IMG/VR virus record: IMGVR_UViG_3300029043_000145 | Length of the DNA: 4,336 bases | Origin: a virus | Taxonomy: Duplodnaviria; Heunggongvirae; Uroviricota; Caudoviricetes | Direction: 5' to 3' (one strand) | Shown here: positions 722 through 857 of the stretch, in pieces | Layout of the letters: every line of letters begins with the position of its first letter | Numbering within the stretch: the stretch's first letter is position 1 | Made by a program: the position numbers and the translations under genes | The notes under the pieces: generated by a model | The model's input: only the letters and a program-made list of their open reading frames with translations | Told to the model about the DNA's origin: nothing | Databases searched by the model: none

Positions 722-857
722 GTGTTCGCGGGTGTTCGTGGTAGTGTTTTGTGTGCATTCATCGCTATGATTATAAAGGAAAATTTTGTTTTCCTTGTTC
801 GCTCTTGTTCGTCACGGTTTGCCCTTGTACGATGCACGGTGTAGTCAATGGTGTAGT
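722..857 (+). promoter_or_regulatory. Helically phased direct repeats upstream of int (putative integrase arm-type sites and int promoter region)
   Basis: GTGTTCG at 722-728 and 732-738 (10 bp apart); CTTGTTCG at 794-801 and 804-811 (10 bp apart); related TTGTACG at 825-831; GGTGTAGT at 838-845 and 850-857 (12 bp apart). All are same-strand and AT-rich flanked. P4-family integrases are known to bind direct-repeat arm sites next to the core. Confidence 0.45.

Follow-up and report, generated by a model that had tools for sequence, protein, structure and literature searches.

Phased repeats in the integrase-proximal attachment arm of a phage-inducible chromosomal island of Escherichia coli: probable integrase arm-type sites and candidate AlpA sites

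Introduction

A DNA stretch of 4,336 nucleotides from the IMG/VR virus record IMGVR_UViG_3300029043_000145, referred to below as the window, contains three families of short direct repeats in front of int, the gene of a tyrosine integrase (Int), and raises the question of which proteins read them. The initial annotation interpreted all of the repeats as arm-type binding sites of the integrase, possibly involved in the autoregulation of int. We describe here that the repeats are located in the attachment site of a phage-inducible chromosomal island (PICI) of Escherichia coli, and that they appear to belong to two classes. The B boxes, which form a tandem pair of 12-mers, are very probably the arm-type sites of Int. 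The A boxes, which are TGTTCG-type repeats phased at 10 bp, seem, at little better than even odds, to be sites of AlpA, a protein of the Vis/Xis family encoded downstream of int. We assign a probability of roughly 0.6 to the explanation as a whole, in which Int reads the B boxes, AlpA reads the A boxes, and the int promoter lies within the repeats.

Results

The repeats are located in the attL of a PICI

The window contains, in this order, the 3′ end of macB, cspD on the minus strand, yljB (630–704), and the beginning of a mobile element, which opens with int followed by alpA. Matches that cover at least 80% of the window are present in 188 complete genomes of E. coli. The element of strain E14 has a length of about 10.5 kb, is inserted between yljB and clpS, and carries int, alpA, an ylcI-like gene, an icd-like gene, and genes for a DUF4222 protein, primase, ssb, the major capsid protein, a decoration protein, and terS, which is the gene set of a PICI. 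Positions 701–884 of the window are the attL of this island and are composed of the crossover core and the int-proximal (P′) arm of attP. The proposal of the initial annotation that the repeats occupy an attachment arm with sites for recombination proteins is thus borne out, since they belong to the P′ arm of a real attachment site and Int possesses a P4-type arm-binding domain.

The core was defined by aligning attL with attB, the empty site of strain MG1655, and with attR, the right junction. The near-identity block reads ATGATAGTTATTTATCAT in the window and ATGATAGTTATCTATCAT in the attB of MG1655. Relatives were collected from E. coli genomes and IMG/VR, and a reconstruction of the core from longest common substrings recovered the perfect identity block ATGATAGTTAT in the relatives L001, L005, and L016; L067 and L077, which gave spurious short matches, were left out. 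Position 712 is a T in attL and attP and a C in attB and attR, and therefore we place the strand exchange to the left of it, with the exact crossover positions judged by eye. No tRNA gene is present in the window, which rules out a tRNA-targeting site; the target of the element is an intergenic palindrome located at the end of yljB.

The P arm, core, and P′ arm are contiguous in the attP junction of the metagenome contig L011 (IMGVR_UViG_3300019373_000108), the Int of which is 100% identical to that of the window. The attP junction is also intact in L076, in which a related element was assembled as a circle. Consequently, the excised form occurs in nature. In L011, the attP junction is at the start of the contig (1–300), and attR with the clpS flank is at its end (10380–10780); evidently, this same element was present in its excised as well as its integrated form, and the two were merged during assembly.

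Arrangement and conservation of the repeats

The repeats GTGTTCG (722–728 and 732–738), CTTGTTCG (794–801 and 804–811), and GGTGTAGT (838–845 and 850–857) are all on the plus strand between the core and the ATG of int at position 885, where the initial annotation had placed them, and a repeat search recovered the same three families. The annotation described both 10-bp pairs as (G/C)TTGTTCG, but the first pair reads (A/G)GTGTTCG, and the core shared by the two is TGTTCG. The second array is more than a pair, with four positions in 10-bp register that start at 795, 805, 815, and 825. The GGTGTAGT pair is part of two head-to-tail 12-mers, GGTGTAGTCAAT and then GGTGTAGTTAAT, which cover positions 838–861. 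The repeats can be divided into A boxes (TGTTCG-type, with 10-bp phasing) and B boxes (the tandem 12-bp pair GGTGTAGTYAAT).

Two groups of elements are referred to as class I (the window, E14, MB41-1, and L016) and class II (EcCICFT073, L006, and L010). In seven class I variants, the two core-proximal A boxes are invariant, whereas the 3 nt that separate them are variable. At 744–750 there is a third copy, GTGTTTT, which is off the 10-bp register. A terminator-like match at 726–741 was discarded as being simply the GTGTTCG pair. In the second array, the degenerate box at 815 reads AGTTCG or GGTTCG in two variants. The array stops 6 nt short of the B pair, which ends 23 nt before the ATG of int and is invariant in class I.

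The arrangement of the repeats is far beyond chance. Dinucleotide shuffling produced two separate pairs of 7-mers at exactly 10 bp within 136 bp in 3 of 20,000 cases, and none of the 3,222 chromosomal windows of 136 bp contained them; an 8-mer pair at 12 bp was found in 88 of the 20,000 shuffles and four of the 3,222 chromosomal windows. TGTTCG occurs six times in the whole window, relative to 2.3 expected occurrences, and four of the six are inside a stretch of 89 bp. Conservation was evaluated in seven distinct versions of the arm, the int genes of which are 89–100% identical at the nucleotide level. Only 2 of 66 positions within the boxes are variable, in contrast to 31 of 100 positions outside them (Fisher p = 2e-6), and the few nucleotides between boxes vary freely. 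The repeats are almost certainly functional parts of attP.

The two A arrays of the window flank a conserved AT-rich segment, TGATTATAAA (TTTATAATCA on the minus strand), which is invariant in class I and has AATCAT on the other strand. Either TGATTATAAA or TGATTATCAA is retained in the class II arms. Compared by eye with WATCAANNNNTTR, the segment has one to two mismatches, with the weakest match in class I, and from this resemblance it may be a site of the integration host factor (IHF). When the segment is read as a −10 element, the combination TTGTGT-17-TATAAA scores only 5.3 in the promoter scan.

Repeats on the opposite arm and geometry of attP

The initial annotation suggested looking for cognate repeats at the other attachment site, and they are present there, in direct orientation, in related copies of the element. 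In the attR of E14, about 75 bp to the left of the core, the sequence is TTTGTTCG CGG TTGTTCG ATA TTGTTCG TGAAGC GGTGTAGTTAAT GGTGTAGTTAAT, with an orientation that matches that of the window. The P arm thus contains three TTGTTCG boxes with 10-bp spacing followed by two GGTGTAGTTAAT boxes with 12-bp spacing. The same repeats are present at both ends of the island of the O157 strain MB41-1, although its cargo differs.

Each arm contains a module of about four 7-mer A boxes in exact 10-bp register, 6 nt, and two 12-bp B boxes, and the P′ arm adds the A-box pair beside the core. The layout of four 10-bp steps and 6 nt is found on the other arm at positions 27033–27069 of L001, and also in class II elements, in EcCICFT073, and in vB_KppS-Ant. 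The A boxes of the P′ arm (722–831) are between the core and the B pair, whereas those of the P arm form an array that is distal to the B pair.

The B pairs are located at 838–861 of the window and at 27076–27099 of L001, and both pairs are present on one intact attP in L011 and L076. The P-arm pair starts 95–98 bp before the identity block, and the P′ pair starts 135–138 bp after it; their near edges are approximately −80 and +128 bp from the centre of the core. The start-to-start distance between the two pairs is 232–233 bp at four integration sites (yljB/clpS, tqsA, abgR/smrA, and roxA/phoQ), the total in L009 is also 232–233 bp, and the distance is 233 bp in the induced satellite vB_KppS-Ant, the Int of which is only 47% identical.

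Four contigs of 37–46 kb (L131, L137, L138, and L163) have no doubled 12-mer upstream of int. Their Int proteins are 73–77% identical to that of vB_KppS-Ant, and AlpA is 97–98% identical, as checked for L131 and L137. Upstream of int they contain three copies of TGGAACAAC and two copies of TTGTTCCA, which are inverted A-box-like words. These contigs may represent helper-embedded or otherwise rearranged attachment arms.

The B boxes covary with the arm-binding hairpin of Int

Int matches the Pfam families PF13356 (residues 8–96, E = 1.4e-16) and PF00589 (E = 2.7e-18). With a profile that combines the Int of the window and those of four relatives, matches to the solved arm-binding domains 3JTZ and 3JU0 were obtained at approximately E = 3e-7. 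The profile was needed, as a search of the solved structures with the single Int sequence missed the arm-binding domain. When contigs were searched with this one sequence, two remote, unrelated recombinases were the only matches.

Each element has just two copies of the doubled 12-mer, one per arm, and the sequence of the 12-mer changes together with the beta-hairpin of the Int arm-binding domain. The hairpin SVRHSTSGLL is paired with the B box GGTGTAGTYAAT, SAKVTKAGGI with TGTATAAACA, [LM]IRV..KG.I with GTGGGGTAC, S[VA]RLLRSG.I with GTGTATCAC, and the hairpin LEVSAKGSKY of phage P4 with TGGGGGCAT. The hairpin SVKYLTSGKL is paired with GGTGTAGTCAYT on both arms, even when AlpA is identical (L006 compared with L008). 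There are at least five hairpin classes, each with its own B box, and the correspondence holds on both arms and is independent of AlpA. The TGTTCG-type A boxes do not covary with the hairpin.

The assignment of the B boxes to Int is based on their restriction to the arms, their fixed geometry, their covariation with the hairpin, and the matching layout of the features annotated as 'attP arm sequence repeat' in P4. The reading of all repeats as integrase arm-type sites therefore fits the GGTGTAGT 12-mers, which are confined to the arms and follow the hairpin, and is not supported for the TGTTCG repeats, which vary independently of it; the interpretation of the helically phased heptamers as integrase arm-type sites is probably wrong.

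The four B boxes, two on each arm, would serve as arm-type sites for the N-terminal domains of an integrase tetramer. Together with a bend in each arm, probably induced by IHF, they would bridge the arms and the core into an intasome for integration and excision.

The A boxes appear to follow the AlpA allele

The register of 10 bp is exact in every A array, which includes 722/732 and 795/805/815/825 in the window, the three boxes on the P arm, and the four to six boxes of class II. At the position of the core-proximal pair, class II relatives have five boxes phased at 10 bp. In a phased scan with a position weight matrix (PWM), the class II arrays at this core-proximal site score 15.7–20.1 and the pair scores 14.0 in L005 and L016, and the 99.99th percentile is 10.8. 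The phased scan was compared with a null of about 105 kb of chromosomal flanks, or 209,428 positions when the two strands are counted, in which the maximum score was 20.0.

Elements of classes I and II have the same Int hairpin and the same B boxes, and differ in the A boxes and the AlpA allele. The A boxes are TTGTTCG in class I, and TTGTTCC, TTGTTTC, TTGTAGC, or TTGTGCA in class II. The relatives L094, L132, and L155 have A arrays in common, and their AlpA is of the alp9 type, yet their B boxes and hairpins are unrelated. In a comparison that contains few independent events and is confounded with the broad Int clade, the class of the A boxes tracks the allele of AlpA rather than the hairpin of Int or the replicase.

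A boxes are also located outside the attachment site. In class II, there is a strong inverted array of about six A boxes between int and alpA, with a phased PWM score of 30.8–35.8. The array upstream of alpA in class I scores 14.0 in the window and 16.1 in L016. In L006, a phased array of TTGTTCG, TTGTTCC, and TTGTTCA (20660–20700, score 27.7) is positioned between a small open reading frame (ORF) and the major capsid gene, and the same factor may control the packaging operon of this capsid-forming PICI. A phased GTTCG pair upstream of alpA in L005 was not counted, as it coincides with a hairpin and a T run and was read as a terminator.

P4 Vis, from the work of Cali and colleagues in 2004 and of Polo and colleagues in 1996, is reportedly both an excisionase and a regulator. 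The binding sites of recombination directionality factors (RDFs) are typically direct repeats one helical turn apart (PMC7498355). AlpA activates its own promoter in EcCICFT073 (PMC6092414), and alpA is required for the excision of EcCIMP1 (PMC11773190). Because the A boxes appear to follow the AlpA allele and recur upstream of alpA and of the capsid operon, they fit an RDF or regulator better than Int. Together with their dissociation from Int and the repeat rule, self-activation, excision requirement, and P4 precedent given above, this leads us to favour AlpA as the protein that reads them.

AlpA would bind the A boxes cooperatively and, on the P′ arm, could form a filament that coats almost all of the DNA between the core and the B pair, which would set the directionality of recombination towards excision. 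The A boxes upstream of alpA would serve the known self-activation of AlpA.

A candidate int promoter overlaps the repeats

The int gene adjoins attL and is transcribed away from the core, with the core (701–718) and the ATG (885) on the same strand, and therefore its promoter must be located in the arm. The best sigma-70 PWM candidate in the arm, TTGTTC-17-TACGAT, scores 8.0, and the 99.99th percentile of the background is 8.3. Three class I variants carry this candidate unchanged, and at the same place in class II and L094 there are weaker equivalents. The −35 element of the candidate is the second A box of the four-box array, the −10 element overlaps the fourth, and transcription is predicted to start at approximately position 840, inside the first B box. 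The occupancy of this box by Int is therefore expected to repress int. The overlap of the promoter with the repeats and the autoregulation, which the initial annotation mentioned as a possibility, are plausible by analogy with P4, PAI I536, and KplE1.

Int, and perhaps AlpA, bound to the boxes would hold the expression of int down, as in P4, PAI I536, and KplE1. The repression of Pint by P4 Int and Vis is cited in PMC7286903. IntI of PAI I536 represses its own promoter (PMC7286903), and the intS promoter of KplE1 overlaps attL and is repressed by IntS and TorI (PMC2951348). In the circular form of the element, read-through into int from the upstream late operon across attP is also possible.

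Alternative explanations of the A boxes

It is unlikely, in our view, that Int is the only reader, such that the TGTTCG-type and GGTGTAGT-type repeats are all sites of its N-terminal domain and no second protein is involved. Such an arrangement would fit the presence of both motif types on both arms in the same order and orientation, the coincidence of the A-box class with the broad Int clade, and the absence of an effect of AlpA on Pint in EcCICFT073. However, the motifs differ in sequence and period (7-mers at 10 bp and 12-mers at 12 bp), and the A boxes differ between elements with an identical Int hairpin and stay the same where the hairpin differs. Furthermore, strong A arrays are present outside att, upstream of alpA and of the capsid operon, where B pairs never occur, and the at least ten A boxes exceed the needs of the four arm domains of an integrase tetramer.

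Another improbable explanation is that the A boxes are read by a host protein, either a winged-helix response regulator of the ArcA, PhoP, or OmpR type, which recognises direct repeats spaced by one turn, or a nucleoid protein, or that they act only through intrinsic DNA curvature, with the B pair remaining the site of Int. The TGTT core and the 10-bp phasing persist in elements with Int and AlpA that are only about 47–60% identical, as expected of a constant host reader. The known boxes of ArcA and PhoP are direct repeats of the TGTTA or TGTTTA type, but they have an 11-bp period, whereas that of the A arrays is exactly 10 bp in every case. In addition, the flanks of the A boxes differ between the classes in step with the AlpA allele, the approximately 105 kb of flanking chromosome lack such arrays (maximum score 20.0, compared with 27–36 in the islands), and the arrays are located at island promoters known to be controlled by AlpA.

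The reading of the TGTTCG repeats as replication iterons, or as a crr-like cis element for the primase-replicase similar to the type I repeats of P4 (TGTTCACC), was rejected and has a very low probability. It draws on the presence, in the element type of the window, of TGTTCACC iterons downstream of pri, which share TGTTC with the A boxes and are also phased, and on the position of the P4 crr beside attP, which the P4 type I repeats adjoin. However, the A boxes do not change with the replicase. Identical A boxes occur in L001 and L005, the replicases of which are 48% identical, with TGTTCACC iterons in L001 and CTCTACC iterons in L005, and L008, EcCICFT073, and L010 have common A boxes but GTCTACC or TATCCCG iterons. 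The iterons of L001 are located downstream of the primase (22260–22480), where there are many copies of TGTTCACC in both orientations that are identical to the type I ori repeats of P4; sister islands with other replicases have CTCTACC, GTCTACC, or TATCCCG iterons at the same position.

Although short T/G-rich words can recur in AT-rich intergenic DNA, the chance that the repeats are coincidental or are a neutral duplication remnant with no present function is negligible, as this is contradicted by the shuffle and genomic null tests, by the conservation of boxes next to variable spacers, and by the presence of the same module, with fixed geometry, on the other arm and at four other integration sites.

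Several observations weigh against the assignment of the A boxes to AlpA and against the proposed promoter. The link to AlpA is partly confounded, as the division by A-box class is also a division by broad Int clade (at least about 89% compared with 72–78% nucleotide identity), and the assignment of binders is based on covariation from few independent events within related lineages. EcCICFT073 has the same P′-arm A array, yet over-expression of AlpA left Pint-lacZ unchanged (PMC6092414). The class I array upstream of alpA is weak, with scores of 14–16 that are under the null maximum of 20.0. The A array of the P arm is outside the B pair, which is an unusual place for a bending RDF. Distant elements retain the TGTT core of the A boxes to a greater extent than the B boxes, which would also be consistent with a host factor that is itself conserved. 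The candidate int promoter is weak in class II, and a stricter consensus promoter scan of the plus strand of this region found nothing.

Table 1. Positions of the attachment-site features and of the genes int and alpA in the window
Feature	Position	Strand	Description
att core	701–718	.	18-bp near-identity block ATGATAGTTATTTATCAT; common to attB, attR, and attP; overlaps the yljB stop codon
Core-proximal A-box pair	722–738	+	GTGTTCG at 722–728 and 732–738, 10 bp apart, 4 bp from the core
Conserved AT-rich segment, possible IHF-type bending site	768–777	−	TGATTATAAA; minus strand TTTATAATCA
Four A boxes in exact 10-bp register	795–831	+	TTGTTCG (795), TTGTTCG (805), CGGTTTG (815, degenerate), TTGTACG (825)
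Candidate int promoter	805–833	+	−35 TTGTTC (805–810), 17-nt spacer, −10 TACGAT (828–833)
B pair, proposed integrase arm-type sites of the P′ arm	838–861	+	GGTGTAGTCAAT (838–849), GGTGTAGTTAAT (850–861)
int, 412-aa tyrosine integrase	885–2123	+	P4-type arm-binding domain, residues 8–96; catalytic domain, residues 214–375
Weak inverted A-like array	2385–2421	−	TTGTTCG, AGGTTCG, AAGCTCG, AGTGTTT in 10-bp register, about 120–160 bp upstream of alpA
alpA, 69-aa AlpA/Vis-family winged-helix protein, proposed A-box binder	2543–2752	+	Pfam PF05930, E = 3.8e-16

Other features of the window

Approximately 6% of the window could not be aligned to its closest E. coli copies (two BLAST pieces, 94% coverage), and the ylcI-like gene encodes 57 aa in the window compared with 101 aa in E14. 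Both sequence differences point to a mosaic replacement in the regulatory region. The perfect palindrome ATGGTAATTACCAT is present twice at 3064–3110, with centres about 31 bp apart. The pair is located directly upstream of a minus-strand ORF for a 57-aa Arc-like protein (2894–3067; YlcI/YnfO family in relatives) and faces the operon of the icd-like, DUF4222, and primase genes. From this position, it looks like an operator pair for the small Arc-like repressor.

The cspD gene (257–481, minus strand) has a 1-bp deletion in a C/G run at 315–320, where the window reads GGCCC, and MG1655 and E14 read GGCCCC. The deletion shifts the frame of approximately the last 19 codons and alters the C-terminus relative to the wild-type sequence. 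It could be a true frameshift or a homopolymer sequencing error. An Rfam scan found no family at 722–857; its sole match was a sub-threshold cspA thermoregulator over cspD and its leader (193–585, minus strand; 42 bits compared with a gathering score of 78), which is expected from the paralogy of cspA and cspD and is unrelated to the repeats.

Discussion

Significance

PICIs, which mobilise virulence and anti-phage genes, are found widely in E. coli. The literature that we searched contained no dissection of PICI attachment sites or of the DNA targets of AlpA, the master regulator of these islands. The locus described here provides a precise, testable map, with a core, four proposed Int arm sites at fixed geometry, and phased arrays that can be separated from them by covariation. 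It names the bases to mutate in order to uncouple integration, excision, and control by AlpA. The value that the analysis adds is modest and consists in the clean in silico separation of the sites of Int from the putative sites of AlpA.

We tentatively propose, at somewhat less than even odds, that a composite module of about 70 bp, with four winged-helix (AlpA/Vis) sites at one-turn spacing, 6 bp, and two 12-bp Int sites, is a conserved block of attP from P4 to enterobacterial PICIs, that it is duplicated on the two arms in PICIs, and that its AlpA boxes serve a second time upstream of alpA and of the capsid operon. If this is true, a single helper-induced protein switches on the transcription of the island and licenses its Int-mediated excision, and the A boxes are the first defined AlpA operator of Gram-negative PICIs.

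Comparison with known systems

The island EcCICFT073, located at roxA/phoQ, encodes int, alpA, primase, capsid, and decoration protein like the element in the window. Residues 29–52 of its Int, which contain the hairpin, are identical to those of the window, its B boxes are the same, and the same module is present on each of its arms. It differs in the integration site, in having class II A boxes, and in the AlpA allele. Integration of the int-attP segment of EcCICFT073 has been demonstrated, and the activator of the island is AlpA (Fillol-Salom et al. 2018, PMC6092414); the attachment arms were not dissected in that study.

In KplE1 (CPS-53), as in the window, int adjoins attL and is transcribed away from the core, so that its promoter must overlap the recombination sites. 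The P′ arm-type and RDF sites of KplE1 are interleaved with the −35 and −10 elements, and both the integrase and the RDF TorI repress int (Panis et al. 2010, PMC2951348). In KplE1, both the sites and the start of transcription were mapped experimentally, whereas the int promoter of the window is a prediction. The arm sites of KplE1 share a TAAA motif, and are not tandem 12-mers as in the window element.

P2 Cox, 186 Apl, lambda Xis, and Tn916 Xis are small winged-helix proteins that bind cooperatively to direct repeats one turn apart, and Cox, Apl, and Vis also regulate transcription at promoters. The A arrays of the window resemble those RDF arrays in being direct repeats spaced by one helical turn. 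The window element has arrays on both arms, with that of the P arm distal to the proposed Int sites; among these RDFs, Tn916 Xis is the only one known to us with arrays on both arms.

Helper-embedded PICIs contain a doubled motif, tgTGTATTGCantgTGTATTGCa, positioned 81 bp upstream and 132 bp downstream of the centre of attP (Mageeney et al. 2023, PMC10111431). The authors left open whether Int's arm domains or AlpA bind to it, and reported that it was not found in other PICIs (PMC10111431). Like the window element, helper-embedded PICIs encode AlpA and have a tandem doublet with a 12-bp period that starts with TGTA and is present once per arm in the same orientation. The positions of the doublets are similar (−81 and +132 compared with near edges of approximately −80 and +128 in the window element), but their sequences differ. 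This is the only published description matching the geometry that we found. The covariation with the hairpin and the apparently separate class of A boxes, both read from sequence comparisons, would be an addition to the published account, and the arm repeats of P4 are now linked to the unexplained doubled motif of helper-embedded PICIs.

The attP of P4 is described by Pierson and Kahn 1987, and its arm repeats are annotated in GenBank NC_001609. Although the Int of the window is only distantly related to P4 Int, both integrases have an Arm-DNA-bind_3 domain, and both elements encode a protein of the AlpA/Vis family. In both elements, either arm bears two 12-bp repeats in tandem, with one orientation throughout, and the int-side pair ends between a few and about 20 nt before the start of int. 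In P4, the int-side arm repeats are immediately preceded by four TCC[GT] boxes phased at 10 bp and then 6 nt, an arrangement shared with the window element. The two differ in the sequence of the repeat (TGGGGGCAT in P4 and GGTGTAGTYAAT in the window element), in the distance between the pairs (209 bp and 232–233 bp, respectively), and in the P arm, where no phased array was seen in P4 and one is present in the window element. P4 integrates into a tRNA-Leu gene and the window element into the intergenic palindrome at the end of yljB. The architecture of the attachment site is that of the P4 family and does not represent a new kind of mechanism.

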